A stretch of DNA of 63,568 nucleotides, counting the filler, from Reclinomonas americana ATCC 50394 (lineage: Eukaryota): assembly GCA_048213135.1 (NCBI GenBank). It is 5 parts of 5 records of this genome, joined end to end, with 100 filler letters (N's around TTAATTAATTAA, not from the genome) between each part and the next. Parts side by side here need not be neighbours in the genome. Positions count along the whole stretch, not along the records: positions 1 to 16,728 come from PS015453.1; positions 16,829 to 31,812 come from PS015454.1; positions 31,913 to 60,528 come from PS015455.1; positions 60,629 to 62,289 come from PS015457.1; 1 more part is not named here. One strand, written 5' to 3'. Of the stretch, positions 681 through 60,796 are shown one piece after another. Below the pieces are notes generated by a model. The model had not been told where the DNA came from. It saw only the letters and a list, made by a program, of their open reading frames with translations, and did not search any database. Position numbers and translations under genes: made by a program. The stretch's first letter is position 1. Every line of letters starts with the position of its first letter.

Positions 681-2325
681 ATGCTGTCAGGGTTGCGTCG
701 ACTCGATGTGTACCCCAAGACGATTGAGGAGTTCAGTGTGCGCACCTACTCGGGTGCCGTGCTGACCATCATCTCGGGCCTCATCATCTTCATCTTGGTC
801 GTGGGCGAGCTGTCGTACTACTTGGCCACGGAGAGGCACGATCGCCTCGATGTGGATACGACACGTGGCGAGCGCCTCACCATTCGTTGCGTCAACGCAC
901 TCGTGCACACACACACACGCACGCACTCACACGCACGCGTGCAGACTTCAACATCACGTTCCCAAGGATCGCCTGCGACAGTTGCGTGTGTGCGCGAGTG
1001 TGACGCTCTCATTTCGCGCCATGGCGTGTCACTCACGCGCCTCTCTCTCTCTCTCTCCCTCCTTCTCTCCTCTGCTGCTGCTGCTGGTGCGTCGCTTCCC
1101 CGCGCACATGCACAGTTTTGACACTGGACGCTGTCGACGTGTCGGGTGAGCAGCAAGTGGCCATTGATCACAATATTATAAAAACGAGGATAGACGAGAA
1201 CGGGAACAAGGTGGTGTCACTCGGCGAGGCCAGTTGCGTCTCCACAGAGAGATGCATCTCAGCATCATGGTGGTGATCATTTGCGATCATCTCAAATTTG
1301 TTTTCTTCGTTTCACTGCAGAACTCGGTGAAGACGAGGCCTCGGTGGAGAAGGCCAAGGCGGCGTTGGCCACCCCCGGCAAGGACTACTGCGGCAGCTGC
1401 TACGGTGCCGAGCAGTCGCCCGGTGATTGCTGCAACACGTTGCGTGCAGGGCGGGAGGCAGCGACTCTACCCCGTCATGTGTTGATGGTCCTTGTCGGTG
1501 TGCAGTTGCGAGGAAGTGCGTGCTGCGTACCAGCGCAATGGCTGGGCCTTCTACCCGAACGAGTCGGTGGAGCAGTGCTTCCGTGAGATTCTCCAGCGTC
1601 GCATGCGTGGCAACATTATCGAGGGCTGCAACATCGACGGTCGTCTGCAAGTCAATCGGCTCGCCGGCAACTTCCACTTGTCGCCCGGGCGCTCGTTCCA
1701 GCTGCTGCATGCGGCGTCGGGTGCCTCGCAGACGAGTGAGCTCGATGTGACGCACACGATTCACACAATGGCGTTTGGTGAGGAGTTCCCCGGGCAGAAG
1801 AATCCTCTCGACAACATTCACCGCCCCACGTCTGGCGGCCTGGAGGTGTTCCAGTACTTTGTGAAGGTGGTGCCGACGTCGTACTCGTCCAGCCGTCGCT
1901 CGTACAAGACGAACCAGTACTCGGTCACCGAGCACGTAAGAAAGCTCGGCGCCAACACGATTGCGCGTGGAATCATGCCGGGAGTTTCGTTTCCTCTCGC
2001 TCTCCCTCTCTCCCTCTGTGTGTGTTGGTTTGGCAGGTTCGTGATTCTCACCTCGTCACGGTCTCCGACACAGGTGTTTTTCATCTACGATCTGTCGCCC
2101 ATCTCGGTGCACATCAAGGAAGACTCGCGCTCTTTCCTGCAGTTCCTCACGTCGGTGTGCGCCGTCGTCGGCGGCGTGATCACCATCTCCTCAATCGTCG
2201 ACAAGCTGCTGTACAACTTGTTGAAGAAGCTGGAGAAGGATCACAACCTCGGCAAGGTGAGCATGCTCACTGCGCGCTGTCTCGTCGATGTCTCCCTCAC
2301 TCATATGCATGCGCAGCCGTCGTGA
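681..2325 (+). CDS. ERGIC3: ER-Golgi intermediate compartment protein 3 / Erv46; exons 681-885, 945-980, 1116-1232, 1321-1438, 1506-1983, 2074-2256, 2317-2325
   Basis: LDVYPKTIEEFSVRT.SGA, LDAVDVSGEQQ, YCGSCYGAE...CCNTCEEVRAAY, EGCNIDGRLQVNRLAGNFHLSPG, FQYFVKVVPT, PGVFFIYDLSPI, FLTSVCAVVGG all join in frame via GT-AG introns. Confidence 0.95.
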
Positions 2326-2523
2326 GCATGTGCTGGTGGGTGATGTCGTGCCGTTCTAGTTGCTGCCAGACCGCAGCGACGAAGACGTGCAAGATGAGTG
2401 GAGGGCGGGGGAATGAGGCTCGGTTGGTTTGCGGCGAATAAAACACAGAAGCGAAAAAAACAACGATGGAGCATTGCATGCGTTGATGATTTATGAGACC
2501 GATACGTGACAGGCAGGCGCCGA

Positions 2524-5500
2524 TCATGCCAGCTCCTGTCGACGGTACTTGTCCTCGGGGAACAGCTGCGCCGAGACCACGCGGCCGGCAAAGAAACGCT
2601 TGTCCAGCCCGTTGATGGCCTGCTGCGCAGCTGTGGGCACACGCAAGACGAAGTGAGGAGGGGGAGAGAGAGTGTGAAGGCGCAGGACGGTTCGGACGCA
2701 ACAAGCTGGGCTGAGGAACACCACAAAGATGTTGACGTAGCCCTCGTCGGCAGCAGCACGCGGCGGTTGCACGTACTTGGTCACCACCTCCTGCTCAGTT
2801 CACACACACTGCTGTGTTAGCAAAACGACGCGAGACGCCCTCACAATCTCCCACCCAACGCAACGACGGCGCCGAATTTCGTGCACTCCTCGCGCACTTC
2901 CTCCTCCAGATTCTCGTCCACCTGATCCGGCGACACCATGTTCTTCAGCACCACCACGCGCGAAGCCTCGCCACGCGAGGCCAGCTGCTGCATGAGTCGC
3001 TGCCGATCGGCTGCCGAGCCAATGCTGACCGATTCCTCGCGCGCAATGCTCTCCACTTGTCCGGTGCCACGTCCAATGCCGCCGAGATTGCCAAACACGG
3101 CGGTCGCCGAGAACACTGATCGCGCATCATGAAAGATGGTGAGTCGTGGAGCAAAGGAGAAACGTGTGTGTGAGGCAAGCAACGCACTGGCCGGGCTGGC
3201 TTCCTGCGTGCCGCCAAGACCACCGTGGCTGGCGGCGGCCGCCGTTGCCATGCTGCCGGTGGCCGGTCCAATCTGCATTGGGAGACAGCATCGGTGATGA
3301 GCGAATTTGGAGTGAACAGGCAATGGGCAAACGTGCTCACCCGCAGCTTGCGGCCAGCCAACTCGAAACTGCGCACGGCGCACACGATCAGCAGGAGTGA
3401 AGAAATCAGCAAATTGTGTGCGACTGCATACCCATCCATGTGCTCCATGGCCATCTTGGCGTCCTCTGGCCTCTCAAACTCAACGAATCCATATCCGCGG
3501 TGCTTGCCGGTCTCTGGGTTCGGCTGCATTGACGAAGCAATGAAAAAATCGAATGAGAACGAGGCGGCAGAAAGAATGTGATCATGAATGGACGTGCGAA
3601 CCAGCAGCTGCACAGAGCGGATCGCTCCAAAACTGGAGAACAGCGACTTGATTTCGTTTTCACCCAGTTCCCACGCAATCGAGCCGACGTAGATGCGAGC
3701 TGCCGGGTTCACCGAGGCCACCAGACCAATCGGAGCACCAGCGATGCCGCCGGTCGCCAGAGCGTTGAAGCGAGCGCCGATGGCGGTCGCAGCCTGTTGC
3801 GCACGTGTCAGGGCGGCCTGCGCAGTGGCCGGGACGTTGAACATTACATTCGGTGTAGCCGACGGCGCCGGCGGCACCGGGTTGTTGGGACGGCCGACTT
3901 TCAGCACTCTGCGTCACGTGTAAGCACCAGATCATGCGAGACATGCGACAACGGCAGCGGCCGCAGCAGCAGCTGCGGCTGTCGACAAGAACAGAACAAA
4001 GAATGCAACCAAAACACCAAGACACAAACAAACAAACAAAACCAAACAAAAACACACAAAGAGCATTCGGTGAGGGAGAGGCCAGCAGCTCACACACATG
4101 CACTGCACTTGTTACCCTTTTGCCAGTGGTCACGCCTGTTATGATTTTTTCAAGCAACACACACGACAGCAACGCAAACACAATCCCAAACAACAGCAGC
4201 AAAAAAAGGGGGGACAGCAAACAGCAGACCGCAACAACAGAAAACAAAACACATCATCCGCGATCAGTTGCTCACGCCCGCACGATAACCATGGCAAGCA
4301 CCCACAGCAGCCCCGTGCACACAAACACGCACAAATACACAGAGAAATGTACTCGCCTGTTGCCGAGAGCGAATCCGTTCATGTACTGCATGGCCATTTG
4401 GGCACTCTGCACACACACACACACACACCGCACGTAAGTGGCCAGAAAATGAAGACACTCACACCGACAACAGCACCCACCTCCGCCGTCACATATTCAA
4501 TAAAGCAGTAGCCCTTGTGGCGATTGGTTTGTGGATCCTGGTTGGTCGGGGAGGGAGTGGATAGTGAGTCGGCATGGCAGGACTTGTTTGTTGCAAGTAC
4601 CATGTGACGCAACAAAGGTGAAGGAAATGTTGGCAATCGGACCAAAGCCCGAGAACGCTGCGCGAATGTCGGCCTCTGTCAACTCGTAGCTAATGGAACC
4701 TGCCAGTGCGTCACCACAGAAGGTAAGCGCACGAGCATGCAAGAGAGAGAGAGAAACAGAGACGGCTGACGCACCGACATAGATGCGCGAGGCCAGTGAG
4801 TTGGTTCGTTGCAGCTGCGCCTGGTAGTGCGCCTGCTGCAGCATTTGCTGCTGCAACAGAACGGCTTGCGCATTCACTGCGCGACGACGTGTGTGAGCGA
4901 GTCGCGAGACAATGACAAAACGAGAGGAGCACGCGACTCACTTGCTGGCGCCGGCGCACGCGTTGCATCACCAGCACCGCGACCCGGCGGCGACACGGAG
5001 CGTGAGCGCGAACGACGAGGCGAGCGTGAACGCGACAACGGAGAGCGCGATCTGCTGGAGCGACGGTGACGCGACGAGCGACTTGAGCGGTGCTTGTCGC
5101 GCTCTCGATGGCGATCACGCTCCCTCTCCCTCTCCCGATCACGATCCCGATCACGGTAGTCACGATCCTTGTCGCCGCGACGACTGCTGCTGCCACTGCT
5201 GCTCACATGCCGCCGACGCGGGCTTCCATCCTCTTCGTCACTGTCATCGGAGCGACGATGACGCGACGAGGAGCCAGTGCGATGTCGACTGTGTCGATGC
5301 CGAATGCGACGCATGTCGTCATCGTAGTCATCTCCAGGAACTGCAATCGGTTCCCCATCATCGTCGTCGTCGGAGCGTGGCGAGCTGCGTCTCCGCCGCT
5401 TCCGATCATCCCGAGAGAGACTGTCGGCGCGCGGCGACCGCGACCGCTTGCGTGACGACGATGTGCGCACTCGAGGCGACTTCTCGTTCTCTCTCACATC

Positions 5501-5575
5501 GTCTGGTGGCGGCACTGCAGGTCCCTCATACACCGGGCCCGCATCATCACCATTGCCGCTGTGTGTCGTCTCCAT
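2524..5575 (-). CDS. PUF60: Poly(U)-binding splicing factor PUF60/half-pint (RS/RD-rich N-terminus, 2 RRM, C-terminal UHM); 11 introns
   Basis: RIYVGSISYELTEADIRAAFSGFGPI...HKGYCFIEY, LGNRVLKVGRPNN, RIYVGSIAWEL...TGKHRGYGFVEF, SRVVVLKNMVSPDQVDENLEEEVREECTKFGAV, FFAGRVVSAQLF; start ATG at 5575 is inferred. Confidence 0.9.
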
Positions 5576-5796: not shown

Positions 5797-8700
5797 ATGC
5801 AACGTCGTCGACCGCAATCGGCGCCGCAACGGCCAGTGTCGCGCCCACGCAGCGCCACACCGACACACACGATGCCGCCACGCGTACCCTCACCATCGGC
5901 GTCCTCCACGGCAACAACCGCCGCCACCGCCACTCGCTCACACCACCAACAACAACGCCCCGCAACGGCTACCTCTCACTCCACGACGACGACGACGACC
6001 GCTGCCGACGGCGACGTAAGAGTCTCACGGCAGTCGTCCTCCAGCTCGCTTGGGCTGGCACGCGAGGCGGCAGCAGGCAAGGTGCGTCCGGCGTCGACGG
6101 GGCGTCCGCACTCGGCGTTGGGTCTGACACGACCGGCGGGGGCGATTGTCAACTCGTTTGGCTTTGCTGTTGGCGACTATGTGACGTCGTTCCCGCGCGG
6201 AGAGGCCTCGTGTTTGGCACCGGGTGGCGAGCCGCCGCTGAATCGCAGTCAGCAGCACATGTTGCACTCGATGACGAAAAAGTTTGCAGAGCCGATATCT
6301 GTTTCCGTGTGCGTGTGGTGAGTGGCTGACTGGTGTGGTGCGTGAGCAGGCACTACAAGTACTCGGCTCGTGAGTTGGTGGATACGCGACTCAGTGTCGT
6401 CAAGAGGTGCGGAGGAGCAGCGGTTCGAAACGGGGTTGGTGGTTGTTGTTGCTTCTTACCACGGAATGATGCAGTCGGCATGCCACACCGACTCTGGTGG
6501 GCGATCCGACCTCGCCTCGCATTGTGATCAAGCGAGATGTGGAGGTGAGGCTGCCGCAGCACATGCACCGTCGTCATCATCGCTGGTCAGACTCAGTCTG
6601 CAAGTGCAGTTCTTCGACTTGCGACGAGCCATGCGCGCCGCCTCGCAGCAGTACATCAATCCAGACAAGCGTGTGTTGCTGCGTGACTTGTACTTTGACT
6701 CGCTGACCGCCACCTACAAGCGCAAACCCATGGAGCGATTCGGTGCGACGCGGCGTAGTGCGTGTGTGTGTGTTCCATCCCGCCTTCCCCTCACCCTCTT
6801 CTCTGCGCGCAGTGCAAAAGACGGCGGCCAACGAAGCACTGAGTGCGGAGCATGTCAAGGAGCGCGCAAGTCTCGGCAACAGTCTGGGACTGGGTGTTGG
6901 CAGGTCACGCGAGCCGGACGATCTGGTCGACATGGTTCTGCGACAGCGCATGGAGGGTGCCTCGGAGGACGAGAAGAACGCCATTCTGCCGGGCGAGTAC
7001 GTCGTCGGCAGTGTGGAGCAGGTGTACCCGTACCGAGCCGAGGTCGACATCCGAGTGTGGCAGGCCGGCAATCGCATGCTGAAAGACAGACCGATGATTC
7101 ACATGAGTGTGGAGAAACTGCGCAAGATCACTCCGCAGCAGTTTGCACGCTCCTGCCGGCAACGATGGGTGGAACACTTTGCACTCACCGTACAGCAGAA
7201 TCAGGATGGCAGCGACGAGTTGCGTTCCCTCCGCACACGTGCACGTGTGCGGTGTCTGTCACCTCACAGGCTCACACAGTGAGCTCGCCGCCACTGGCGC
7301 ATCACGGCCGTCGCGTCCTCCGTCTGCCAAATCTGCACCAGCCACCGCTCGCCGCCTCCAGCACCTGCGTCGCACCGCCGAGCAGGAGATGGTGTCGACT
7401 GACCGATCGACTGCTGCGCCACCAGCTGGTCCCACGCATCCGTACTTGACACCACGGACTGTGGAGGTGCAATAAGACGCTCATTGTTGGTGCTGATGTT
7501 GATGATAATGAGCAGCTAGCTGATCGTATGAACGTGAGCCGCGCAGTTTCGTGACCGCATCGCCTCGTCGGTGGACTACGATGTGGAGGCCGACATGGCT
7601 CTCATTCACGAGGAGATGGGCTTGAAGCGGCTCGAGTCGGCTCCTGTGCGGCCCACGTCGGCACCGCCCACGGCACTGAGTGCCATGATGCCACCGGCGC
7701 TGCGGTCAGACTCGCCACCATCTCGATCGTTCTTCCTCACGCAGCAAGGTGGAGCAGAGCATTCTGCGCTTCCCGCTGGTGGTGTGCTGGCGTCCAGGAT
7801 TCGAGCCGCAGTGCATGCCGCCACTCGCACCAATGTGGTCTTTGTCGGTGACCGAGGTCTGCATCCCCACAATGACAGCGAGATGAGAAGACTGTGTGTG
7901 TGTCTTTTTGACTTTGATTGTTTGTGTGTGTGTGTGTGTGTGTGTGGCGCAGCGCTTGCACGAGCCAAGGAGAAACGCAAGGAGGACCGAACTCGACGGC
8001 GACTGGAAGAGCTTTCGAGTAAGACAGCCAACAATCAGACGTACAAGCCGACTAAGCAGCTGGTCTCCGTGCAGTCCATGGATCTGACGTCGGTGGCCGC
8101 GGGGCCCGACACCAAGGTATGGAGGGAAGATAATGTGGCGAGCAAGATCACTAGCTGATTATCTTTCTCCCAGTTCAAGCACATGTTGTCGCACTCGCAA
8201 AACACCGACAGGGGCGAGGTCGCGTCCATGTACGTCAACCGCATCTCCACCCTCGAGGCGTGCTATGAAGTGCGTGCATGCATGCGTGCAAGCAACACAT
8301 TATTTACGGCTCACCTGTGCACTCGCAACAGGCAAGTCCGGCTGCGATATTACAGGCGAAGCTCTTCGACAGTGTAGTGGTCGGCAGTGTGGCTGCCGTG
8401 CTGGACCTCAACTTTATGATAATCGATACCGAGTATGGTGTGCATACGAGTGTGACGCACGTGTGTGTTTGGGATCGCTCCTGCTGACAGTATTCTGTGC
8501 GTGCGACAGGCTCGTTGTTGGCTCGTTTCTTTGCGCTGGAGGTACTGCCGGAGGAGCAGCGGCATCACATGGGCTATGTGCAAGTTGCGTGTGCATCTGC
8601 TTGTCATCTTTGCATCACCTCCACTCATCATCTACTGGCGCACGTGCGCAGCGAGTGAACGCCATGGTGTCGCACCTGCAGAATCTCCGATTTCGCACTC

Positions 8701-10557
8701 TCGGTGTCACAAAGGAGGATGTGCTCATTGTCGACGTGCAGTTCAGCGAAGGCGGCTCCGTGCAGGTTTGTTTGTGCGCCGCGTCCCTACTCGCACTTGT
8801 GTGCGGATGTGTGACTCCTCCTGCAGCTGGAGATGCTTGCGCAGGGTCTCGGCCGACTGTCGTACACCGACCTCGACATGCTGAATCACACACATCGTGA
8901 CACGATTCTCGACCGAGACTACAAGCAGGAGCTGATTGAGGCCAATGAGAAGGCGAAAAAGGCGAAGCGTGGTCTGTGGGGCGCTCCTTCTCCCGGCGCT
9001 GCCATGAGTGCGGGAATGGCGCGACGAAGTTGCGCGATCGTCGTGATTTCCTGTGCATTCTCAACACATGCCTGAACCCAGTTTTGCAGAGTCTGTCGTC
9101 ATTGGCGCGGGCGGTGGCGGTCTCGGCATGCGGCCATCCCCATCTCTGTCTCCCAGTGTGCATTCACCCCGTGCCATTTCGCCCCTTGTGCGCTCCACCA
9201 CGCCGTCGGATCCGGGCGACAGGTGTGTCCGCCGAATGCGTTTGTGTTGTTTTTCTGTGTACCGTGCACCTCACTCGCCATTGATGGAGCAGCAGCCCGG
9301 ATCGCTCACGATCTCGATCGCCGTTCTTTGCCGTGGGCCAGGACGAATTCACTGATACGCCGGCCACTGAACCCGGTGTGGCGAGTGCCATTCCGTTCCA
9401 CGTGACATCCGCACGCCGTGCCTCCATGCCGGCAGTGCAGATGCCGCCGCCGCCCCTGATCAGCTCCTCACCGCGTGGCAGCATTGCTAGCGGGTCACAG
9501 GGCGACATTTCACGACTGCGCAACAAGATCCGGCTTGGCTCGCCGTCGGCACAGCGCATGTTGGACACAGGTGCTCCACCCAGCGACACCTCGTCGACCA
9601 CAATGCCGCGAATTCCCGACTCGCCGCCGCAGACGCGGCAGACACGCTCCGTGACCATCTCAAGCATGGCAGTCACCACGCATTCGTACACCCCGTCGCC
9701 AGTCGACATGCAGGAAGACGAGCTGATCTTGCATGACGACATTTCGCGCGTGCGCAGTCGCCGGCGTGTGCAGAGCGGCGACGATGGCGGTGTGGACCAC
9801 CACAGTCGCGTGGAAGATAGTGGTGACGAAGATGACGACGACGATGACGACGACACAGTGCCGCCGCCTCGCGTGCACCTCTCGGCCAGGCGTGCCAGCG
9901 AGGGCACGGCGCTGATTGGCTTCTCGGCAGCGGTGCCGACGAACGTACCGTCGTCGACGGCACCGAGTGGCACCAACGGACACAGCACAACCACGTCGTG
10001 GTCGATGCGAACAGCGTCGGATGACCATGGTGAGGTCGGCATTGGACGGATGGACATGAGTCCCGAGTTGTCCATCTCCATCATGCCCCGCATGGTGCAA
10101 GTGGAAGACTCGGCAGCGGTGCGTCTCACAAGCCTTTGTCTTGTCTTGTTCTATCGCCCTGTGCAACTGATTGTATTGCGCGTGGTTGTGGCAGGAGTAT
10201 CGTCGACGCGGCTCATCCGTGTCGCCCATCAGCCATTCGCCGGCGGAGTTTGCACACATACACACGCACAGCAACTCTCTCGATGTACTGCCGGTGGCGC
10301 TGGTTGCCAAGTACACCAGCATCTGTGCGTTGTTGGATGAGCAGATTCGCGCGGAGAACCAGCGCAAGCTGGCGAGTGCGTTGAATGCGCGACCGGTTTC
10401 TCGCGGCAGCACTGCCGACGCGGACCTGAATGGGCCCCCCATCGACGCAAATCCAATGCCGGTGATGGCTGTGCTCTTCCCCAGTGCCGACCAGGAGATC
10501 ATGACGTTCAATGCTCGCCGAGGTGGCTTTGCCGGTGGCCTCAACGTGCCGAGATAA
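5797..10557 (+). CDS. Large multi-exon protein, mostly low-complexity (RPxSA motifs), with a staphylococcal nuclease (SNase)-like segment at about 8330-8990
   Basis: Exons chain in frame through GT-AG introns (e.g. 7219-7279, 8584-8651, 9029-9088); the segment ending MLAQGLGR...YKQELIEANEKAKKAKRGLWG resembles the SNase-fold C-terminal helix; stop TAA at 10557; some internal junctions unresolved. Confidence 0.55.
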
Positions 10558-10654: not shown

Positions 10655-13600
10655 TCAGCGTAGCTCCGCCTGTAGCGACGAGAGACGCTGCAGCACACGG
10701 ATTTCGCGTTCGGCTCTTGTCGATAGTCTGTGGGGACGTGTGAGCGAAAGGAATCGTGTCGACAATGGGAAAGCGCGGCCCTCGCAAACAACAAACCTGT
10801 GCTGCTCATCGTGCATGAGGAGTGCCATGGGGTCACCGTGGTCGACCGCGAGAGCGGCAGCAGCAAACTCCTGTGCCTTGGCCGCGTCTTTTTGCTTCTT
10901 GATATCGGCAAGCGTCATGACTCGAACCTGATGCACTTGTGAGCATGTGACGCACAACCTCTTCCGCCCGTGAATTGCACTCTCACCGATGACTTGTTGC
11001 TGCGCATGCTGTGACTGGAGCTCTTGCGCCCTCCCAGCAGATCGAAACTGGTCTTCCGCTTTGCACCAGATGTGTTGCTGCGATTCGACATGGCCGACTG
11101 CGGCTGCCCGACGCCAGCCAGCGAGGTTGCCGACGGACCCTGCCGCTCCCTCTTGCGCTCTTGATGCGAGAGAGTACGCAACAGATTGCGAACCTCCTGC
11201 GCACGGTGGGTTAATAAGTCGTGACGCACAAGAGACAGCAATCACACACACACACACACGCGCGCAACTCCTGGCAGCGTGAAGCCGAGTGGATCGCGCA
11301 GCGACGGATACACGGCGAGTGCAATGTCCACCAGATCGAACATGACCACTGCCCGTTGGCCTTGCTCTGCGAGAAGCGTTTGAAAGTGAGTGATGTGGAG
11401 TGAATGTGTGCTGTTGCCACAAAGTGCTTGAGTTACCCATGTCTGGCGATGGTGAACGGAATCATGACAAGGCAATCAAAGGCAACAACAAAACAGTGCA
11501 GAGAGATAAAAGGCATAATGTGTGCAGTATTACGGGCGGGGCGGCAAGCGCGTGATGAGCTCCATGAAGCATGTACGAAAAACAGCAATCTCTATTCGAC
11601 TGCCAACACACACACACACGTCACCTTCCATGATCAGTAGTCGATCACCAGTCTGCTGCGCAAATCGTCCACACACAGAAGCAGGGGTGCGGATGGCGGC
11701 CTGTGGGAGCGGACCGGCTAGGAACGAGTCCATAGGTGAGGTGTTTGTCAGCTTGGCCAACATGTCGCCCGAGTCTGCATCATAGATGCGAACTTGGCAC
11801 GTTTCCGACACGGTGGCGCACTGGATACGTACAGATCAGCAACATACAACAGACACGACATCGACTGCAGCGTGTAGACCCACCATGTGGAAGTGAGGCC
11901 ACCACAGCATGTCGGCAATGGATTCCGGGCACTCCTCCAGCTTGACGGAGATCAGATGCTGACCTGCCAGCTGGTGTTCCTGCTTGGGCGAGAAGCGTGA
12001 CAGGGCCATCTGCACGCAAGACCGTCAGAGACACCCTCGACACTGGTTTCCGTCACACCACCACACAGTCACGCAACATCCGCTGGGCGCTCCACACTGC
12101 CGGCGGCTGCCGATGATGCGCCTGGCTTTCGCTGTACACCAGCAACGGACGACTGCGCGTCGGCGACATTATTCACATGCACAATGCCGTCGGCGTCACC
12201 CGACACCACCAAGCGAGATCGCGGTATCGAAACAAATGTGACACTGCGCTTATGTCTGGCGAGTACGTGCTCTTGCGTGGCTGTGAATTACAAAGAGCAT
12301 GAGGGTCGTGAAGCGCGCTCGTTGCGGTGGGTGGCCTCGTGACACAGCACCTGTAGTGAGATTCCAAAGCACGACGCCACCATTGGAGAGGCCGCACACC
12401 AACTGATCGCCCTCAGCACTGATGGCAGACGCCATGATGGGACTCGGGTGCAGCAGTTCACGATTCCCGCGCGGAGCCGTCAGCAGACCTGGAGAAACAC
12501 ACACACACACATGCTCATGAGCCACGACACGCATACACATCAACTGGCCCGTGCACGCAACTGTTTCCGGCTCCACTTCCCGAGGCTCCGCCAGCTGCTC
12601 CGACACCAGCAGGCAACCGACTCGGTGGCAGCGGCACCAAGCAGTGCAGGGTGACAGACAACGAGCCACGGTTGTACACGGCCACATGGCGGGTGACGCG
12701 ATACGGCAGCTGCCACAATGAGACGAAGATGCAGTTTAGCGACGACAAAGCAGATGATCCGTGTGTCTGGTGAATTCACCTCTGCGGCGCGAGATCGGTA
12801 GCCCGGCCCGCTGACAAAGTGGTACATGGGAATCACGCCGGCACCCGAGTCGAACACCGTGGCACCCGGTTCAATGGCAACCATGCCGGGAGGCACAGTG
12901 GGCTCTGGTGGCGCAGCAGCGGCGGCGGATGGTGGTGGACCCTGCGCAGGTGTCGTCAGCTTTACGACATGAATCATACTGCCCCATTCACGAGTCGCCA
13001 CCACTAACCTTGCCACCCTTCGCAGCAGGCGGTGGAGCAGCCGCGGCGGCAGGGGCTGGAANNNNNNNNNNNNNNNNNNNNNNNNNNNNNNNNNNNNNNN
13101 NNNNNNNNNNNNNNNNNNNNNNNNNNNNNNNNNNNNNNNNNNNNNNNNNNNNNNNNNNNNNNNNNNNNNNNNNNNNNNNNNNNNNNNNNNNNNNNNNNNN
13201 NNNNNNNNNNNNNNNNNNNNNNNNNNNNNNNNNNNNNNNNNNNNNNNNNNNNNNNNNNNNNNNNNNNNNNNNNNNNNNNNNNNNNNNNNNNNNNNNNNNN
13301 NNNNNNNNNNNNNNNNNNNNNNNNNNNNNNNNNNNNNNNNNNNNNNNNNNNNNNNNNNNNNNNNNNNNNNNNNNNNNNNNNNNNNNNNNNNNNNNNNNNN
13401 NNNNNNNNNNNNNNNNNNNNNNNNNNNNNNNNNNNNNNNNNNNNNNNNNNNNNNNNNNNNNNNNNNNNNNNNNNNNNNNNNNNNNNNNNNNNNNNNNNNN
13501 NNNNNNNNNNNNNNNNNNNNNNNNNNNNNNNNNNNNNNNNNNNNNNNNNNNNNNNNNNNNNNNNNNNNNNNNNNNNNNNNNNNNNCCGGCGCTGCTGCAG

Positions 13601-16728: not shown

Positions 16729-16772
16729 NNNNNNNNNNNNNNNNNNNNNNNNNNNNNNNNNNNNNNNNNNNN

Positions 16773-16784
16773 TTAATTAATTAA
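16773..16784. other. Assembly linker TTAATTAATTAA inside an N gap (also 31857-31868, 60573-60584, 62334-62345)
   Basis: Identical palindromic 12-mer with stops in all six frames, centred in N runs four times. Confidence 0.95.
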
Positions 16785-16828
16785 NNNNNNNNNNNNNNNN
16801 NNNNNNNNNNNNNNNNNNNNNNNNNNNN

Positions 16829-17122
16829 GCATGCGTTGCCGAGTGCCTTGACTTGGCGCACAAAGAAGCGTGGCGTGGCGTGTGCCGACGGCGTCGGCAC
16901 CACAGCGTCGCGTCCTGCCTCGTGCTCCTCGGCCGCCGCACCCGTGCTGCGGTCGGGGAACAGGAAGATGAGGGCGAGGGCGGGCGAGGGCGTCATGGCC
17001 AGCAGTTCCTCGTCCAGCCCGTACACGTCGCAAAACGCCCACTCGGCCGTCGACACGCCCAGCTTCTCCAGCAGCGAGTTGAAGGCGTCGGGGTTGCTCT
17101 CCAGTGCAGACCAGCCAGCCAT
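16829..17122 (-). CDS. Ubiquitin C-terminal hydrolase, peptidase C12 (UCH-L1/L3-like), N-terminal part; remainder lost in gap
   Basis: MAGWSALESNPDAFNSLLEKLGV...FCDVYGLDEELLAMTPSPALALIFLFP...FFVRQ..LGNAC (oxyanion Q and catalytic C). Confidence 0.9.
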
Positions 17123-17473
17123 TCTATTTTTGTGTGCGTGTGTGAGTGTGAGGAACAATAATGTGCAAGTTGTCCCGTGAATGCAATCACAGAGAGTGTG
17201 TGTGTGTGAGTTGTGTGTGTGTGTGTGTGACAAGGGGAGGGAGAAGAGGCTGAATGCAGACCTTCGATTGAGGGGTTGAGATTTGATTTAATTTCGGTCG
17301 CCCGTTCAGTTGATCGGGGTGTCGCGCGGTTTTTCTTCGTTGAATTTTACCGTTTTCAAGGCAGAGTGCGAGAGAACATCACGCCATCGTCACCACGACC
17401 GCAGTGAACAAGCGCACACGCACACACACAAGCACACGCACGCACGCTTCCTCTGGAATCTCGTTGCACAGAC

Positions 17474-20400
17474 ATGCAGGGAATGCTGTTGCGTCGATCA
17501 CGCTTGGTGTCGTTTTTCCGGTTAACACAATGATCGCTCACTCTCTCTCTCCCTTCCACAGCGAGACCGCAAGTGTGGGACCGTCGGGTGTCGTTGTTGG
17601 TGCGGATGAGCAGCTGCAGCGCGGTCGCAGCACCGGAAAAAAGGGCACTCGCCGACGACGCAGTGTGGTGTCGGCACCGAGTCGATCGCCGGTGAACGCG
17701 TCGCGTGTGTCCCGGCCGGTGGCGCGCGAGACCGGTCGCAAGAATGCAGCGCCGGGCACACCCAAGGGCCCCGGTAAGCGAAAGCTGCAGAAGACTGTGG
17801 GAGACGCGCCGCAGCTGGAGGGCGAGTTGACGACGATTGAGCTGGACCTGGACGAGGCGCCGGCCAGCGCCGCCACCGACATTGACATGAGTGACTCGTG
17901 CGATGGCCCGCACGGCATCAGTGGAGAGGAGGACAACGTGTCGGAGGTGGCACCGTTGTCGGCCATGCACACGGACTTGGCGTTGCACGCGGTCAACATG
18001 GCGATCTTGGCTCAGCGGCGACCAGTGACACTGGCGGAGCGATCGGCTCTGCGCCTCCGAGCTGGCCTTGAAAAGGTGTGTGTGTTTTAGGAGAGAGGGG
18101 CGAATTGCTGCGCGTGTGGAGAGACTAACCGTGCGGCTTGCAATTCCCTCCATGCAGCGATTTGCCGAAGCCACGGTCCAGTCGCAGAACGTTGAGCCTG
18201 CTGGTGGTGTGGCCGCGTTGCCTGGCGCACAGGCTGATGGCTCTGTGGTTCTCGTTTCGCCACGCAGTCTGCAATCGCCGAGATTGTCGCTTTCGCCGTC
18301 ACGACGAGCGGCGCAGTCCGACAATGCTGTCGCACCTAGTGCCGGTCGCTCGCTTCCAGGTCTGCTGGCGCCCGCGGACTCAACGACGACAACTGCAAGC
18401 AATCTTCCAGCCCCTGTATCCCCACGTCGTGCGCACTCGCCGATGAAGTCCCCTCGGTTGTCGCCGCGCCCGTCAGCAGCTCCCCTGTCGCCTCGTCCAT
18501 CCACCGCCGGCTCTGTTTCGCCGCGTGTTTCACCGCGACCAGTTGTGTCGCCCGGAAGGCGACAGCCGTCGTCCACTGCCGCCATGCCACCCACACCCAT
18601 GCCGCAACTCTTGCAACAGAAGCAGCAGCAACAGCAGCAACAACAACAAGTCAGAAAACCCAAGAGCGCCGAACCGTTGCTTTCACCGCGATCGCACCCG
18701 GTCTCTCCGCGCCCATCGAGTCTGCAAGCACCAGCAGTCGCCAGCAAGTCACCATCACCACCGCCACCACCCCCACCGCCTCCAGTTCCGCGAGAGCAAG
18801 CGGCACAGCGCAGCCGGCCTTCAGTGTCGCCTGGTCGTCACGCACCGTCCGTCTCTCCTCGTCGACAGGCGCCAGCTCCCACTCCTGCACAGCCTCCGGC
18901 GGCGTACTCGCCGAGGCCCTCGTCAGTGTCGCCGCGTCGACAGACGTCAGCCGGCGTGTCGCCCCTGCGCAGCGGTGCCGAGACACGCAAGCCATCACTG
19001 CCGGGCCTCGTGGTCAAGTACGTGGTTCCGATTGCGCCGCTCACGTGTGTGGAGACACCGGCGACGGCCAGAGCAGCAGAGCGATACGGTCGCCCGGTCA
19101 CGCGACCAGGTGGCCAGCACGGCGCAGTTGTCAGCAAGCGCAGCACCACTGCCACCAACATTCCCAGCAGAAGTCGCTCGCAGTCGGCTGGGGCGGCGGC
19201 GGCACGGGCGACCAAGGCAGCCAAGGCCGGCTCTCGTGTTCGTTTCCTGGATCTGGAGCCGGTGCCGGCAATGCCCGACGACGCCACGTCGGCCAACTCA
19301 CCACCGGCCACCCCCAGTGGCGTGTCGGAGGCGCAGACTGCTCCGTCTCGATCGGCTCCACCGAGCCCGCCACCACAAGCCGACAAGAAGGCAGAGGATG
19401 CGTTGGAGAACACAANNNNNNNNNNNNNNNNNNNNACCAAACATGCTGGTGACCGAGTCGCTACCGCTGCCGCTGTTGGGTGACACCGGTCCGGAGCCAC
19501 GCGGCGACGGTGGCGAGGTTGGCATATTCAAAGGTGGCGGTGGGCGCACACCGCGTGGTGACAGTGGTGGCGGTGCTGCCGGCATTTGCGGCTGCGGTGG
19601 CGCCGGCAGCGCTGGCGACGACGAGCCTTGTCGGACACGCGGGGCCGGCAGCGATGGCATGGGCGCCGCTGGTGCCGACATGAGTGGCACCGCGCTGGCC
19701 GAAGGCAGTCGCACCGGCGGCGGTGCCGTAGGCATGCTCTGTCTTGCCGACATGACGGGGATCGACGCCGTGCTGCGCACCACCTGTGGAGGACTGGCTG
19801 TGGCACCGGCCGCAGAGGCGGTCTGCAGCGGCCGCCGACGACCACTGGAGCCACCGTCGTCCTCGCTGCTGCTCGTCTCGGGTTCGGGCGACGGCGAGAG
19901 CGCCAGAGGCATGACGCCGTCGGCACCACGGCGACCGCCCTCCTCGTCGCTGCTGTTGCCGTCGGGAGACTCGCGCCACAGACGCTGCTTGGTGACAGGG
20001 CGGACACCGGTCACCTCGTGCTCCACTTCGTGCTCGATCTCCACGTGACGCCACTTGGGCACCGAGGCATCCACCGACAGGCGTCGGCGCGGTGACGGCA
20101 ACGGACCAGGCGGCAGCGAGGCCACGGCGGCCGGCTTGGAGTTGCGGTCGTCGAGCTCTCTCTGCACCTCCACCAGGAGCACCTTGAGCTCGGCGCGCCG
20201 ACGCGCTTCCGCCTCTCGCTTCCNNNNNNNNNNNNNNNNNNNNCCGCGACCGACTCCACCCGCCATTGGTGGTGGTGCTGGTGGCGCTGTTGGTATCGCC
20301 TCGCGCTTCACGCCACCCAGCGCCCCTGTCAGCTCAGTCGCCTCCATGTCGTCGCTGTCGTCGTCTGCGTCCTCCCCATCGGCATCGCCGTCGCCGCCGC

Positions 20401-31812: not shown

Positions 31813-32179
31813 NNNNNNNNNNNNNNNNNNNNNNNNNNNNNNNNNNNNNNNNNNNNTTAATTAATTAANNNNNNNNNNNNNNNNNNNNNNNNNNNNNNNN
31901 NNNNNNNNNNNNTGACAGAACCATCGACATGTCCACAACACAGCTGCGTGTACAAACAACAAAGGCAAACGGCCACACCTTGTCTCGACTCCTACCTCTC
32001 CCTCCCGTCTCTCCCTCCGTTTCTCACTCACGCAATCTCTGTGCATCTGGTTCGAACAAACGAGACAGACAACTCGACCTTGAAACGCTGATGCCCCGAG
32101 ACAAGCAGCCATCGTCGTCCCTCGACTCTCTTCTCTCCATCTCCCTCCCTTCTCTCTCGCAAGACAGCGCTACCTCTCA

Positions 32180-42458: not shown

Positions 42459-43087
42459 ATTCCCTGTTTCACTTATCACCACCCGTTCGCTGTTTGGTTG
42501 CCTTCCTCCCCCTCCCCCTCCCCCTTCTCACCCCTTCGCCTTCTTACCCCTTCCACAGAGGACGCCTCTCACTACAAACGCCCCCCTGTACTGAACTGCG
42601 AGCAACGCTGCAACAACGTGCGCTCGTTCCGCTTTGTCGACGAAGTCGTGCCAAACGCACCATGCTTTGGCCTCACCGACGACTTCTTGGACGAGCACCA
42701 GATCCACCTGGTGGCGCACTCGATCGAGTACGAGAAGCCCGACGACATTTACTATGCCGTGCCGCGTCGTCGTGGAATGACTCGAGTTGCGTGCGTGTGA
42801 AGAAACACTCTCTCTCACTCTCTCTCTCTCGCTCTCGATTTCTCCGTGTCTTTCTTTCCCAGCTTTCTCCTCGTCTTCCCCTCTTTCCCCAATTTTCCTC
42901 TTTCTCCTCTGCTGTCTTCCTTTCCTACTCTTCTCCTCTGTCTCATTCTCGTTTCTGTGTGCAGATTTTGCCGCGCACCGAGGGCATCAGCACCAGCGCA
43001 ATTATCGATCTTGTGCGCAATCGACCAGACCTCATTCAGCGTCCGACGACGACGGCAGCTGCTGCGGCAGCCGACGTCAAGAAGTGA
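39724..43087 (+). CDS. Fusion of CDP-alcohol phosphotransferase-like domain and C-terminal HxGH cytidylyltransferase, paralogue 2
   Basis: PPNIITLAG, FQMMEALDGRHARRVRQASSLGAIFDHSCS; then RVYVDGVYDITHYGH, HYKRPPVL..EQR..VRSFRFVDEVVPNAP, ILPRTEGISTS; collinear with paralogue 1. Confidence 0.85.
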
Positions 43088-52025: not shown

Positions 52026-55000
52026 TTACCCCCCATCAAAGATTGCACGCCCACGTACCCTTGGAATACCACCACCATTGCTGCTGCTGCTGTAGCTGCT
52101 CGACGATTGCGGCGACCACGTCCATGGCGACGACAGGCGCAGAGTAGGCGACGATGACAGCGTGCCGGAAGAAGTGGTGTGCGACGGAACTCGTGGCGAC
52201 GTCACTGTCGCTGGGCGCTGGCTCGAGAGCCCCACAGGAGCGCTACGCAGAATCGGCGAGCGGTAGTCGGCGCGCATCAGCTCCACGTGTGACTGCGGGT
52301 GCATCTCGCGTGCCACCAGCGGCCGGTAGGATTCACGGATAAACGAGGCCTCTTCCAGACCGGCGGCCGCCGTCGGAGTCACCGAGACTGGCGAGAACAG
52401 TGGCACCAAAGTGGTCGGCTCCACAGGCAGNNNNNNNNNNNNNNNNNNNNNNNNNNNNNNNNNNNNNNNNNNNNNNNNNNNNNNNNNNNNNNNNNNNNNN
52501 NNNNNNNNNNNNNNNNNNNNNNNNNNNNNNNNNNNNNNNNNNNNNNNNNNNNNNNNNNNNNNNNNNNNNNNNNNNNNNNNNNNNNNNNNNNNNNNNNNNN
52601 NNNNNNNNNNNNNNNNNNNNNNNNNNNNNNNNNNNNNNNNNNNNNNNNNNNNNNNNNNNNNNNNNNNNNNNNNNNNNNNNNNNNNNNNNNNNNNNNNNNN
52701 NNNNNNNNNNNNNNNNNNNNNNNNNNNNNNNNNNNNNNNNNNNNNNNNNNNNNNNNNNNNNNNNNNNNNNNNNNNNNNNNNNNNNNNNNNNNNNNNNNNN
52801 NNNNNNNNNNNNNNNNNNNNNNNNNNNNNNNNNNNNNNNNNNNNNNNNNNNNNNNNNNNNNNNNNNNNNNNNNNNNNNNNNNNNNNNNNNNNNNNNNNNN
52901 NNNNNNNNNNNNNNNNNNNNNNNNNNNNNNNNNNNNNNNNNNNNNNNNNNNNNNNNNNNNNNNNNNNNNNNNNNNNNNNNNNNNNNNNNNNNNNNNNNNN
53001 NNNNNNNNNNNNNNNNNNNNCACAGTCTGAATGGACAGCGGCGGAGACCGCTGCAGTTGCTGCTGTTGCGGCGGCGAGGTCTCGGCAGGCGGCGACGCGC
53101 GTGTGCTGCGGCAAGCAGCCTGATGCAACCGTACGAGTTGCAGACGGCGTAGCACCGGCGACCGGTCGGCTGTGGATGGCGGCACGAGCGGGTACCGCGA
53201 ACCAGGCGGCGACTCCACCGCACTCGAAGCCGCACTGATCGGCAACGCCGTGTGTGTGTGCGACGACAACCCCATGAGTGCGACCGACGACTCGGGCGAC
53301 AGACGGACGCTTCCGACTGGCGGCGGGGTAATGTCGACTGCAGCCGCAGCTGTTCCACAAGAAAAAGTGGGTGAGTCACACGAGGTGGCGTGGAAAGTCA
53401 CGAACGAAGAATTAATCGACACACCTCGTGGCATCTTCATGCGTTGCAGTGGCGTCTCCGACCACGCGGGAACTACAGCGAAGCAAACAAAGAGTCAGAA
53501 AATGGTGCCCGGTGACTTTCCATTTTGCCTACTCCCGTGCAGTTACGTACCACCACCAGCGTGCATGTCAGAGCCGGCAAATCGCTCGCCCTCAGTGGCC
53601 AGCATGTGATGACGATGTTGTCCCTCAGTCGCTGTCCACCGCGCAAATGTGACGTCTTCCGTGGACATGGTGGCATGTCGTCGCACTGGAACAGCAACGT
53701 CAGTGAGCGATACATCTCATGAGAGAGAGTACACACACACACACATACCGTCGGGAGAGTGAGCGGCTTGCAACGTGGACGACACGGGTGTCGCGGGATC
53801 GGCAGGCAGCGATGCCACTTGCGGAGTGTCGTCTCGCACGCGGCGGAGCACGGAGCGCATGGGCGATACACCTCCACGAGCACCAACCGATTCAGGAATG
53901 AGCGGGGGTGCCAGCAGCGGTTCGGTTGTCGGCGGCGAGCGGTGCGCCAGTGGTGATGCACGTCGCCAGGCTGTGCGCGCAAGAGTGAGACACAGAAGGC
54001 ATCCACGACCAACCAATCTCCCGTCCCTCACGCAACAAGTGAGCGACGCACTGGCTGTACGACCGTCGTCGGTGGGTGGCGAGTGCTGCGGCGGCGACAA
54101 GTCATCTGCATGGATCGGTACCGCTGATCTTGGCGGCGACGTGTAGCCGGCGGGCACCACCACTTCTTCTTCGCCCTCCTCCTCCTGCTGCACGCTTTCG
54201 TAAACCACCGGCATGCTCTCCACACCAGACGACCCGGCAGGTCGCGCAGAAGCCGCACGGACAGCATCGTGCGACACCACAGTGGTCGGCACTGCACGCA
54301 GAATAAAATGAACAACAAAAATCCGTCCGCACGCACACAAACACACATTGGTTTTGCTCACCGTTTCCTCGCACGCCTACAGCCGGCGGCGATGGTGGTC
54401 GCGGCACATCCAGCGCGCTGGTAACTGCGATATATAATGACGCAAAAATAAAGCGAGACAGGTTGAGTGCGCACGCACAGCACGCGTCATTGGCACCCGC
54501 AAACGAACCGGACGGCGAGCTGGGCGTGTCGGTCGCCGCACTGAAGCCTGCACGCGGGACCGCAGGCGGCGAATCCAGCACCTCCTCTGCAACAAGGCCG
54601 ATAGCCTCCGCTAGCGGCTTCGAGGCTGCACGGGAGCATGAGAACACTTTTGAGTCACAAGCAGACACAGACAAACTCAACAGCGCAAGCTTCCACGACG
54701 GCGACGAGAGCCGTCCGGTGGCGATGCGGCAAGTGGTGCCAGACCAAGTTCGGTGGTGAGCTGGGCGGCCAGGGCGCCAAAATACGACACACTGCCGCGG
54801 CGACCTGTCGACGAATCGCCGCCCTCGGCGGGAATGGAGGAGGCGCCAGAATCCGGTGACTGTACCGTTGCAAGGCCGAGAGGTGAGCGGAATGGTGGAA
54901 CACTGGAGTCGTCGCCGGCCATTGCCATCGGAACAGCAGGCGCAGGCGCAGGCGCAGCAGTTGCACTGATGGGCTGGTTGAGAGAAGGCGCACTGTCGCC

Positions 55001-58000: not shown

Positions 58001-60527
58001 TGCAGCGTTCCAAGTCATGCGACGACCGACGCTAGTCGCACTCCCCATCCGGGTTCCACCGGTGAGGAGACGAGAGGGCGTCTTGAAGCTGTTGCTGCGT
58101 CCGGGACTCGACGACGTCGGGCTGACGCCGGAGCCGAGAAGCTGTGAGAGAGCACCAAACGCCAACGCCGACGCAGTTGGTGGGGAGCGCGATAGAAACA
58201 CGTCGTCGATGCCAATCATGGCTGGTACAGCCACTGCATCCTCCTCGTGCAGCTCCGTCTCCCACAGAAAATCTACTCAGCAGCACGGATCGATGTGAGA
58301 CATGTGACGACCACAGGCAGAAACTGCACGAAAAAACACGCACCGGGCGACGCGTCGACGGGTGACACAGACATGGGTGTCCGCGGAGAGCTTTGCACGC
58401 TGACAATGCTCCCCATGCACTCCATCGACTCGCCCTCGAATGATGCCGTGGTCGACGTTCCACTGCTCGACAGCGCCACATCGTCGCGATCTACGACCAC
58501 CGCATCTCCATCACCGACAGCCGTTGCGCCAGCAGCACCAGCGGCAGCAGTGGCAGAGGCCATTGATGGTGTGTGCAGCAGAACCTCGGCTGCGCAACAC
58601 ACACAAAAACGTGAGCCTGGGGGATTGCGCGTGGCGGAAAAAGTGAAATGAGAACACGAATTACCGCTGCTTGCTCGTCGTGGTGAGGAGTGCGACGCGC
58701 TGGTGCCCCAATCGTCGGTCGAGGACATATCCAGCGGCAACGGAAGCACATTGTGGATGGCATAGACGGCCCGCGACTCCTTGGTGAAGGGCACAGCCAG
58801 GCTGGAGCCGCGCTTGCGCGTGGTGTCAGAGGGCGACAATGGTGCAGACTGCTGCATGGTGAGCGGGATGGGTGTCGGCAGAGGTGTCGCTGAGCTTGTC
58901 TCCGACGACGCCACCTCTGCGACGAATGCGAGATTAGTGACATGGCAACTGCTTCGTGCGGTCAGTCTACACACACCAGAATTCGACATTGCTGACGATG
59001 ACGGCGACGGTGGCTCTCGTGGCGGTGCCAAAGGCGTCTGCTGTCCGGCAAAGGGCGACGAAATCTGGCGGAAAGCCACATCATCAAGTTCTGCTTCCCG
59101 TTCCAGACGGCGCCAGAGAGCCTCTGTTGGATCCAAGTCTTCTTCATCGTCGTCGTCATCATCAGCATCAGCCGCCCGCACGTCCACGTGCATGGCGTCG
59201 CTGGTCGGCACTCCAGTTGTAGACATCGCCAACTCCTCGCCAACTGAACCGACTGCGTTGTCGCCAGTGGCCGCAGCAAAAGGAATGGTCGCATGATCAC
59301 CAAAGAATGCAGACGATCCGGTAACTGAGTCGTCGTCGTCGGGCGCAGAGACTGCTTTGAAGGCCTGTAGAAATCGCGTAAGTGCCTGTGCTTATGACTA
59401 CAAATGTGATTTTCACGCAACAGCGGGTTTCCNNNNNNNNNNNNNNNNNNNNNNNNNNNNNNNNNNNNNNNNNNNNNNNNNNNNNNNNNNNNNNNNNNNN
59501 NNNNNNNNNNNNNNNNNNNNNNNNNNNNNNNNNNNNNNNNNNNNNNNNNNNNNNNNNNNNNNNNNNNNNNNNNNNNNNNNNNNNNNNNNNNNNNNNNNNN
59601 NNNNNNNNNNNNNNNNNNNNNNNNNNNNNNNNNNNNNNNNNNNNNNNNNNNNNNNNNNNNNNNNNNNNNNNNNNNNNNNNNNNNNNNNNNNNNNNNNNNN
59701 NNNNNNNNNNNNNNNNNNNNNNNNNNNNNNNNNNNNNNNNNNNNNNNNNNNNNNNNNNNNNNNNNNNNNNNNNNNNNNNNNNNNNNNNNNNNNNNNNNNN
59801 NNNNNNNNNNNNNNNNNNNNNNNNNNNNNNNNNNNNNNNNNNNNNNNNNNNNNNNNNNNNNNNNNNNNNNNNNNNNNNNNNNNNNNNNNNNNNNNNNNNN
59901 NNNNNNNNNNNNNNNNNNNNNNNNGGGGAACTGGCGGGGCGCCGGGTGACGAAGGCAGCGGCGGTGGCGGCGACGACGACTCGGTGGGAGGAGCAGCAAA
60001 GTACACGGGTTTCGGTGGTGGTGGCGGGCCGCGTCGAGGAGGTAGTGGTGGCGGCGTCGATGCTGTGGACAGCGGCGACATGACCACCACTGGCGACTCG
60101 TCGAGAGAGGCCCGTCTCGGCTCCGAATGCCACTCCGTGCGACCATAGCGATGAACAGACAGGCCAGGTGGTGTCATTGGCGGAAGGACTGGCAACGCAC
60201 TCGAGTCCTCACTGAGCACGCTGGTGCCGTCGTGCGACAGAGGCGACTGCACCGCACTGATGAACAATGCAGGCGCTTCAGCGGACAACTCCACCGCATC
60301 CAGGCCGCCCTTCTGCTGCGATGCTCGATTTCGACCAACGGAGCCCAAGACCGGTGACGAGTGCAGAAGCGCAGAAGCACCGCTCGCTGCTGCAGCCGTC
60401 CGCGGGGTACTCTGCGCAGGAGAATCGCTGCCGTGGCGAGCGACAGGCGGCAGCACCGTCGCAGGCAGCGAAAGTGGCGGCGGTGAAAAGTCGAGCAATG
60501 AAGCGGGACGCCCAGCGACTGTGCCAG
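52026..60527 (-). CDS. Very large low-complexity Ser/Pro/Asp/Glu-rich protein(s); ends undefined because of gaps
   Basis: Long - strand frames (55553-58234, 54677-55468, 58273-59232, 59925-60527) of similar composition separated by short introns or gaps. Confidence 0.55.
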
Positions 60528-60796
60528 CNNNNNNNNNNNNNNNNNNNNNNNNNNNNNNNNNNNNNNNNNNNNTTAATTAATTAANNNNNNNNNNNNNNNN
60601 NNNNNNNNNNNNNNNNNNNNNNNNNNNNGCAAGGGAAGGAACAGGGGGAGGGAGAAGGGGGAATGAACAGGGGGAAGGAAAAGGGGGAAGGAGAAGGGGG
60701 AGAGAAGGGGGAATGAGAAGGGGGAATGAGAAGGGGGAAGGAGAACGTCAACACTGCGAATAGCTTAACAAGCAGCACCACAAGATGCAACGCAAC

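Follow-up and report, generated by a model that had tools for sequence, protein, structure and literature searches.

A displaced class of 5' splice sites appears to accompany the common class in nuclear DNA of Reclinomonas americana

Is the position of a 5' splice site relative to U1, the small nuclear RNA (snRNA) that reads it, a fixed property of splicing, or can it change across a whole genome? The position is usually treated as fixed, with rare exceptions: validated non-canonical U1 registers account for 3119 of 201,541 human sites (1.5%) according to PMC4856993. The question is raised by a stretch of DNA from Reclinomonas americana ATCC 50394 (assembly GCA_048213135.1; hereafter, the window), which is 63,568 bases long, including 5,698 N, has a G+C content of 59% of called bases, and is eukaryotic nuclear DNA rich in short introns. 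A preliminary description of this window had pointed to an abundant second class of donors, in which an extra T follows the GT and the conserved G and T stand one place further downstream (GTTGCGT and similar words, called here the GTT class). We find that the introns of the window are ordinary short GT-AG introns, with CAG as the acceptor and a median length of about 73 nt, and that their 5' ends are of two types, G/GTGNGT and N/GTTGCGT, where the slash marks the exon-intron boundary; the second type is supported by homology, by a parse blind to donors and by clustering. In the gene models the GTT class seems to account for roughly a quarter to a third of introns (29-36%), with GTTGCGT as the commonest donor heptamer. 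All these results come from DNA, homology and statistics, and pertain to a single 58-kb sample.

Two genes of the window, listed in Table 1, could be modelled by homology. Pfam matches to ERGIC_N and COPIIcoated_ERV lie at 0.6-2.3 kb (+), and matches to RRM_1 at 2.5-4.9 kb (-); the first gene is ERGIC3-like and the second PUF60-like, the top matches of the latter among solved structures being PUF60 (2qfj_A, E 1.1e-20). The ERGIC3 model (exons 681-885, 945-980, 1116-1232, 1321-1438, 1506-1983, 2074-2256 and 2317-2325) has a coding sequence of 1146 nt with an intact frame; when it is compared with 10 homologues, junctions 1, 2, 4 and 5 are free of gaps, and junction 3 falls in a variable region. 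Four of its donors read GTTGCGT, one reads GTTTCGT and one GTGAGC. The frame of the PUF60 model, with a coding sequence of 1887 nt, is likewise intact, and the model aligns to 10 homologues; a word search with exon 3602-3913 gave none, and the homologues were taken instead from an exhaustive search with the UHM exon. The earlier assignment of five of the six ERGIC3 introns and three of the eleven PUF60 introns to the GTT class is confirmed by these alignments, which place the donors at /GTT.

The choice of donor in these eight introns was examined by letting every in-frame GT..AG pair within ±40 nt compete, with the alignment to the homologues as the score. In all eight cases the GTT donor ranks first, leading rival donors by 50 to 314 alignment points; near-ties arise only where the acceptor changes and the donor does not (a 12-nt variant at 1233, with a difference of -2 points, and a 3-nt variant at 2864, with a difference of +5). 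Seven of the eight junctions are located in gap-free, conserved alignment. All eight introns are GT..AG and end in CAG, as do all the other introns of the two genes, and for this reason cleavage is placed before the G of GTT. The intron that begins at 2864 carries a tandem acceptor, GAG-CAG, at 2791-2796 (-), where the acceptor 3 nt upstream is the one that scores 5 points higher; this is a possible NAGNAG site.

The motif itself is over-represented in the window. All 25 strings of the preliminary list occur at the coordinates and on the strands given for them (for the minus strand, the donor coordinate is that of the G of GT). Counting both strands, there are 27 copies of GTTGCGT, compared with a mean of 12.57 (sd 3.52, maximum 23) in 100 dinucleotide-preserving shuffles. 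The effect is specific for the extra base: in words of the form GTxGCGT, with expectations from an order-3 Markov model, the observed and expected numbers are 27 and 12.6 for T, 1 and 3.1 for A, 19 and 17.4 for C, and 17 and 25.1 for G, so that T alone is enriched.

For the rest of the window we relied on a gene finder that scores coding sequence by three-periodic, order-2 log-odds, models introns of 40-700 nt explicitly, trains its own acceptor matrix and lets the two strands compete. In an early version the strands did not compete; its self-training drifted, with genes predicted on both strands, and a version in which the acceptor model was combined with greedy removal of overlaps lost PUF60; masking passes were used in its place. 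In a donor-blind run, in which every GT received a donor score of zero, GTTGCGT nonetheless outnumbered every other donor heptamer, at 12 of 106 introns: 12 of its 27 copies were used, versus 106 of all 7512 GT sites (1.4%; Fisher p 4.8e-16). A mixture of two free matrices and a background, fitted from random starts to these blind donors, converged on a ..G/GTG.GT class (40%), a GTTGCGT class (20%) and background (40%). Five rounds of re-parsing with the mixture yielded 108 introns, with the two classes at 63% and 33% and GTTGCGT at 18 of 108 donors; this final, unsupervised parse reproduces the homology-based ERGIC3 model exactly. The donor-blind figures are the conservative ones, and the gene models outside ERGIC3 and PUF60 are predictions.

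In general, it can be seen that the two classes differ in where their conserved bases lie, and the claim that the G moves from +5 to +6 is borne out. Among the 39 GTT donors of the final parse, 31 have G at +6 and 5 have it at +5; for the 69 other donors the corresponding numbers are 5 and 55. The donor-blind parse follows the same direction, with G at +6 in 16/30 and at +5 in 5/30 of the GTT donors, and at +5 in 36/76 and at +6 in 12/76 of the others, the frequency at background GT sites being 0.24-0.31. A T at +7 is found in 26 of the 39 GTT donors of the final parse, and the minor forms of the class are GTTGCGC, GTTCCGY and GTTTCGT. The five GTT donors with G at +5 (GTTAGT, GTTTGT, GTTTGC) all carry a G at the last exon position; together with the PUF60 donor ctg/GTTCGC at 3601, they are members of the common class with T at +3. 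It had also been suggested that each GTT subtype mirrors an ordinary one. This is borne out in part: ordinary donors of the forms GTGCGT, GTTCGC, GTGAGT and GTACGT are present, and the GTCCGC form was not seen in our models.

The clearest difference lies on the exon side. A G at exon position -1 occurs at none of the 8 GTT-class donors of ERGIC3 and PUF60, versus 7 of the 9 other donors of these genes (p = 0.0023), and at none of 28 GTT-class donors in the parse. Only three copies of GTTGCGT in the window follow a G (692, 23950 and 38024), and none of them is a donor in our models. We can consider here the possibility that the class arises from chance occurrences of the motif combined with mis-modelled genes, or from an assembly artefact that inserts a spurious T into GTGCGT. 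It is true that reading frame or the self-trained gene finder is the basis for 17 of the 25 listed sites, and that six of the 25 have no support. Set against this, none of the 100 shuffles reaches 27 copies and eight of the sites are fixed by homology; an extra T at about one in four donors is incompatible with unbroken frames of 1146 and 1887 nt, and sites with a spurious T would retain the exon -1 G, which the GTT class does not have. We regard both forms of this explanation as very improbable.

Apart from the donor, the introns of the two classes look alike. The median length is 72 nt in the GTT class and 73 nt in the other; the acceptor is CAG in 31/31 and 70/77 introns, respectively (with a self-trained acceptor model); CTNAY, a putative branch-site motif, is found 5-45 nt before the acceptor in 21/31 and 52/77; and intron phases are similar. 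The U12-type donor [AG]TATCCTT occurs at none of the 108 model donors. Since GTT introns otherwise resemble the rest and share no sequence family, there appears to be no sign of a second spliceosome, nor do these introns look like copies of an introner. The latter idea, that GTT introns descend from a mobile element which brings its own 5' end, does account for the presence of the same heptamer at many introns, as expected of a young element family. When the 108 model introns were compared all against all with blastn, 10 short matches of low complexity resulted, none of which links two GTT-class introns beyond the donor, and intron lengths range from 42 to 392 nt; we consider an origin of this kind extremely unlikely.

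A different way of removing the anomaly is to move both junctions, such that the exon retains the G and the intron runs TT...AGN, which would extend the rule of a G at the exon end to all introns. With regard to homology, the evidence for this arrangement is mixed. A cut displaced by +1 scores 9 points higher at 981, and at 1439, 1984, 4613 and 2864 neighbouring cuts yield an identical protein and therefore tie. At the other sites that discriminate, the displaced cut is worse: it loses 33 points at 886, where, of 120 cuts that keep the frame, whatever their termini, the cut at /GTT alone ranks first and no other has GT..AG, and 32 points at 2702, where the cut at /GTT is the best of the seven obtained by shifting donor and acceptor jointly from -3 to +3. 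In addition, all 31 GTT-class introns end in CAG, as in the other class, and the base after the AG is T in 9, C in 9, G in 8 and A in 5, so that a displaced 3' end would have no motif. Displaced junctions are thus a highly unlikely explanation, and even when artefact, displacement and introners are taken jointly we give them little credence.

These results can be interpreted in terms of how U1 would read the donor. The explanation that we favour, with about even confidence, is that one guide, U1, reads donors in two registers. Both classes would be removed by the same major spliceosome, and in both U1 would bind a single word of seven bases, G-[G/T]-T-G-C-G-T. This word would start with the last base of the exon in the common class; in the GTT class it would lie one base deeper in the intron, with the intron +1 G standing in for the exon -1 G (a shifted register). 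In either case the cut, made by the catalytic core (U6, U5, Prp8), would fall before the first GT of the word. We propose that such a shifted register is the reason why the conserved G and T are at +6 and +7 rather than at +5 and +6, why the exon -1 G is missing, and why the remainder of the intron is alike in the two classes.

The same U1 could also accommodate the extra base by a bulge, with +1 G and +2 U paired as usual and the U at +2 or +3 looped out. Registers with a +2/+3 bulge have been validated at human 5' splice sites (PMC4856993), and a bulge predicts a G at +6 and a T at +7 just as the shifted register does. The two differ at the exon end: a simple bulge would keep the pair between the -1 G and C9 of U1, and an exon -1 G should be common, at variance with its absence from the GTT class. 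This absence is the reason for preferring the shifted over the bulged register. Furthermore, ViennaRNA calculations with a human-type U1 produced no bulged duplex at any of the 8 checked sites. On these grounds we hold the bulged register to be unlikely.

Several points weigh against one guide in two registers and must be set beside the evidence in its favor. First, the shares of the two classes outside ERGIC3 and PUF60 depend on a gene finder whose training sequence was this same 58 kb and whose donor model reinforces itself. Second, at site 981 a cut displaced by one to three bases downstream has the higher score (by 9 points), though it lacks GT..AG ends. Third, the base at exon position -1 of the GTT class is T in 13, A in 10 and C in 5 cases, and not the A that would be expected opposite position 10 of a canonical U1. 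Fourth, a C is found at +5 in 31 of 39 GTT donors, versus 26 of 69 at the matching position (+4) of the common class; the GTT class is tighter than a common donor with a T added, and a pure shift of register makes no such prediction. Finally, pairing to a human-type U1 5' end (letters as in PMC4856993), which may not be that of the host, has a mean of -1.0 kcal/mol in the GTT class (n=31), compared with -2.8 at random GT sites (n=500) and -5.5 in the other class (n=77).

Since the GTT class pairs worse than random GT sites, a canonical U1 in the shifted register does not by itself explain how GCGT is recognized. With the human-type U1 a shifted duplex forms at only one of the 8 checked sites (981, which is also the sole extended duplex). 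With a U1 built by script to pair with the common consensus, it forms at 6 of 8, in five of them with the pair between +1 G and C9, although this U1 fails to separate the GTT class (-5.9) from random GT sites (-5.5). Either the U1 of the host differs, or there is a second guide, or another factor reads GCGT.

These options lead to the idea of a dedicated reader, fully complementary to GUUGCGU, so that two guides would be at work: U1 might have an altered 5' end or a second paralogue, or the reader might be a different snRNA or a protein. The poor pairing with human-type U1, the conservation of GCGT including the C at +5, and the fact that the class is one discrete heptamer (18/108) rather than a fuzzy family are all in line with it. 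To our knowledge the 5' end of U1 hardly varies from one eukaryote to another, which we count against this idea. In addition, no snRNA gene was seen in the window, where a search with Rfam at gathering threshold matched no RNA family; the script-built U1 for the common consensus gives the GTT class -5.9 versus -5.5 for random GT sites; and the remainder of the intron is alike in the two classes. We look upon a dedicated reader as rather doubtful. The same measure of doubt attaches to its evolutionary counterpart, in which the U1 5' end would have been rewritten or duplicated in this lineage, leaving one guide, or one of two, complementary to GUUGCGU; the new donors would have coevolved with this guide and come to occupy about a third of introns, giving the major spliceosome two donor codes.

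To return to the individual sites, the 25 donors of the preliminary list do not all have the same standing. Homology supports eight of them (886, 981, 1233, 1439, 1984, 4613, 2864 and 2702) and a further 11 are found in self-trained gene models only; both groups are shown in Table 1, together with donors that were absent from that list. The last six (36376, 37240, 38024, 47385, 47572 and 60796) are in no gene model, and their local support is weak or nil. A local test of coding potential was non-discriminating in this respect, as random GT sites have a 90th percentile of 15.2, compared with 11.5-24.0 at true sites.

Table 1. Modelled genes and candidate GTT-class donors of the window, with the support for each
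Feature	Position	Strand	Support or remark
ERGIC3-like gene	681..2325	+	7 exons, 6 introns (5 GTT class); Pfam ERGIC_N, COPIIcoated_ERV
PUF60-like gene	2524..5575	-	12 exons, 11 introns (3 GTT class, 1 GC-AG)
Donor GTTGCGT, ERGIC3 intron 1 (886-944)	886..892	+	Best of 2 in-frame GT..AG pairs
Donor GTTGCGT, ERGIC3 intron 2 (981-1115)	981..987	+	Best of 6 pairs, next -98; gap-free
Donor GTTGCGT, ERGIC3 intron 3 (1233-1320)	1233..1239	+	Best of 14 pairs; variable region, weaker homology support
Donor GTTGCGT, ERGIC3 intron 4 (1439-1505)	1439..1445	+	Best of 8 pairs, next -309; gap-free CCNTCEEV junction
Donor GTTTCGT, ERGIC3 intron 5 (1984-2073)	1984..1990	+	Best of 3 pairs, next -220; gap-free MPG/VFFIY
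Donor GTTGCGT, PUF60 RRM1 intron (4613-4538)	4607..4613	-	Best of 4 pairs, next -192; gap-free ISFTF/DPQTN
Donor GTTGCGT, PUF60 UHM intron (2864-2791)	2858..2864	-	Donor best; acceptor ambiguous by 3 nt; gap-free KFGAV/EVV
Donor GTTGCGT, PUF60 last intron (2702-2631)	2696..2702	-	Best of 16 pairs; gap-free junction SPA-S-AQQ
Donor GTTGCGT, orphan gene	7219..7225	+	Final parse only; donor-blind parse took the GT 5 nt downstream
Donor GTTGCGT, orphan gene	8584..8590	+	Donor-blind and final parses
Donor GTTGCGC, orphan gene	9029..9035	+	Final parse only
Donor GTTGCGT	17488..17494	+	Final parse only; model clashes with nearby (-) Peptidase_C12 open reading frame
Donor GTTGCGT, TMEM260-like gene (Pfam)	24436..24442	-	Final parse only
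Donor GTTGCGT	28912..28918	-	Donor-blind and final parses
Donor GTTCCGC	35081..35087	+	Final parse only, low-scoring gene (score 15)
Donor GTTGCGT	35232..35238	+	Final parse only, low-scoring gene
Donor GTTTCGT	40544..40550	+	Donor-blind and final parses
Donor GTTCCGT	40674..40680	+	Final parse only
Donor GTTGCGT	42786..42792	+	Donor-blind and final parses
Donor GTTGCGT, absent from preliminary list	12071..12077	-	Donor-blind and final parses
Donor GTTGCGT, absent from preliminary list	12555..12561	-	Final parse only
Donor GTTGCGT, absent from preliminary list, large orphan gene	54030..54036	-	Donor-blind and final parses
Donor GTTGCGT, absent from preliminary list	59415..59421	-	Donor-blind and final parses

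GTTGCGT contains a second GT five bases in, as at 7224, 38029 and 42791 (+). This second GT was chosen at all three positions by the first acceptor-trained donor-blind parse, and at 7224 and 38029 by a later one; tandem donors 5 nt apart may be in use there. A sense-strand copy of GTTGCGT is also found at 692-698 (+), 11 nt into the conserved coding sequence of the first ERGIC3 exon, where it is evidently not used as a donor. One PUF60 intron departs from GT-AG altogether: the intron 4356-3909 (-), of 448 nt, begins with GCGAGT and is GC-AG, with a gap-free ALGN-R-VLKVGRP junction, every in-frame GT..AG pair being more than 125 alignment points away.

As for the surroundings of these genes, the largest ERGIC3 exon has its top relative in a transcript-like contig of 1338 nt (56% identity), followed by Andalucia godoyi (46%); a metagenome genomic locus, considered as a further relative (42% identity, 66% GC), was too distant to be informative. 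Among the 150 longest stop-to-stop frames, Pfam matches are limited to 7. At the left edge, a WD40 frame at 21-440 (+), with EIF3I/WD40-type matches, probably represents the final exon of a gene with WD repeats. The Peptidase_C12 (ubiquitin C-terminal hydrolase) frame at 16829-17287 (-) is cut by a spacer and clashes with the gene model at 16995-19415 (+). Two cytidylyltransferase-like (PF01467) matches, at 38.3-38.7 kb and 42.5-42.7 kb (E 5.5e-06 and 0.009), both on the plus strand and 4 kb apart, could represent tandem paralogues or a single two-domain gene. (TC)n and (CA)n microsatellites are abundant throughout the window and chiefly intronic (TCTCTCT 367 versus 73 expected; TGTGTGT 211 versus 34). 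The spacers, at 16729-16828, 31813-31912, 60529-60628 and 62290-62389, are 100 bases each and consist of 44 N, a 12-base word with stops in six frames and 44 N; they join separate contigs, such that genes on either side may be apart in the genome, and additional gaps are also present.

If the two classes are what they seem, a displaced register as the commonest donor would show that the register can evolve across a genome. It would also offer a natural system in which to study how the hand-over from U1 to U6 sets the site of cutting when U1 sits one base off, and the coevolution of an snRNA guide with a class of donors would become testable. On the practical side, a gene finder that has learnt donors of the GTRAGT type would overlook between a quarter and a third of such a genome's introns. 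We found no near-identical protein in either length class of the protein collection, where the top matches were 56% and 37% identical, and the donor bias of gene finders may be a reason why proteins of this organism are missing from it.

How does this arrangement compare with known ones? GTGCGT and GTGAGT donors occur in other GC-rich protists and algae, and the common class G/GTGNGT is of the same ordinary kind; we know of no GC-rich protist or algal genome with an added GTT class. A search of the full-text literature, with supplements and subscription journals outside its reach, turned up no organism for which a donor class of this kind is described. A close parallel is with the shifted-register sites of human cells (Roca & Krainer 2009, cited in PMC4856993), where the register is established but rare, and where the intron +1 G replaces the exon -1 G opposite U1. 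The human sites share with the GTT class the extra base after the GT, the G at +6, the U at +7 and cleavage at the GT, and in both the exon -1 G is dispensable, the test oligo of that study having an A at -1. Unlike the human sites, which are rare, the sites described here include the commonest donor heptamer and comprise about 29-36% of model introns; moreover, the tail is AAGT in the human sites but GCGT in the window, which pairs poorly with a human-type U1. The bulged +2/+3 register of human cells (Roca et al. 2012, cited in PMC4856993) is similar in that a base appears to be inserted after the GT; it predicts a retained -1 G, whereas here there is none at the eight homology-checked donors.

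U12-type introns offer another comparison, since they too constitute, within the same genes, a discrete donor class with its own consensus. They differ in that no [AG]TATCCTT donor was found among the 108 models, in that the 3' parts of the introns look the same across the two classes, and in that the share of the GTT class is far above that of U12 introns in human, given in PMC4856993 as 0.36% (with GC-AG sites at 0.9%). The last comparison is with the tunicates, whose lineage-wide non-canonical splicing (PMC13326754) is another case of a whole genome off the standard donor rule, and for which changes in U1 and U6 have been proposed. In the tunicates, however, the GT and AG dinucleotides themselves are lost, whereas in the window both are retained and the change is confined to the register of the tail.

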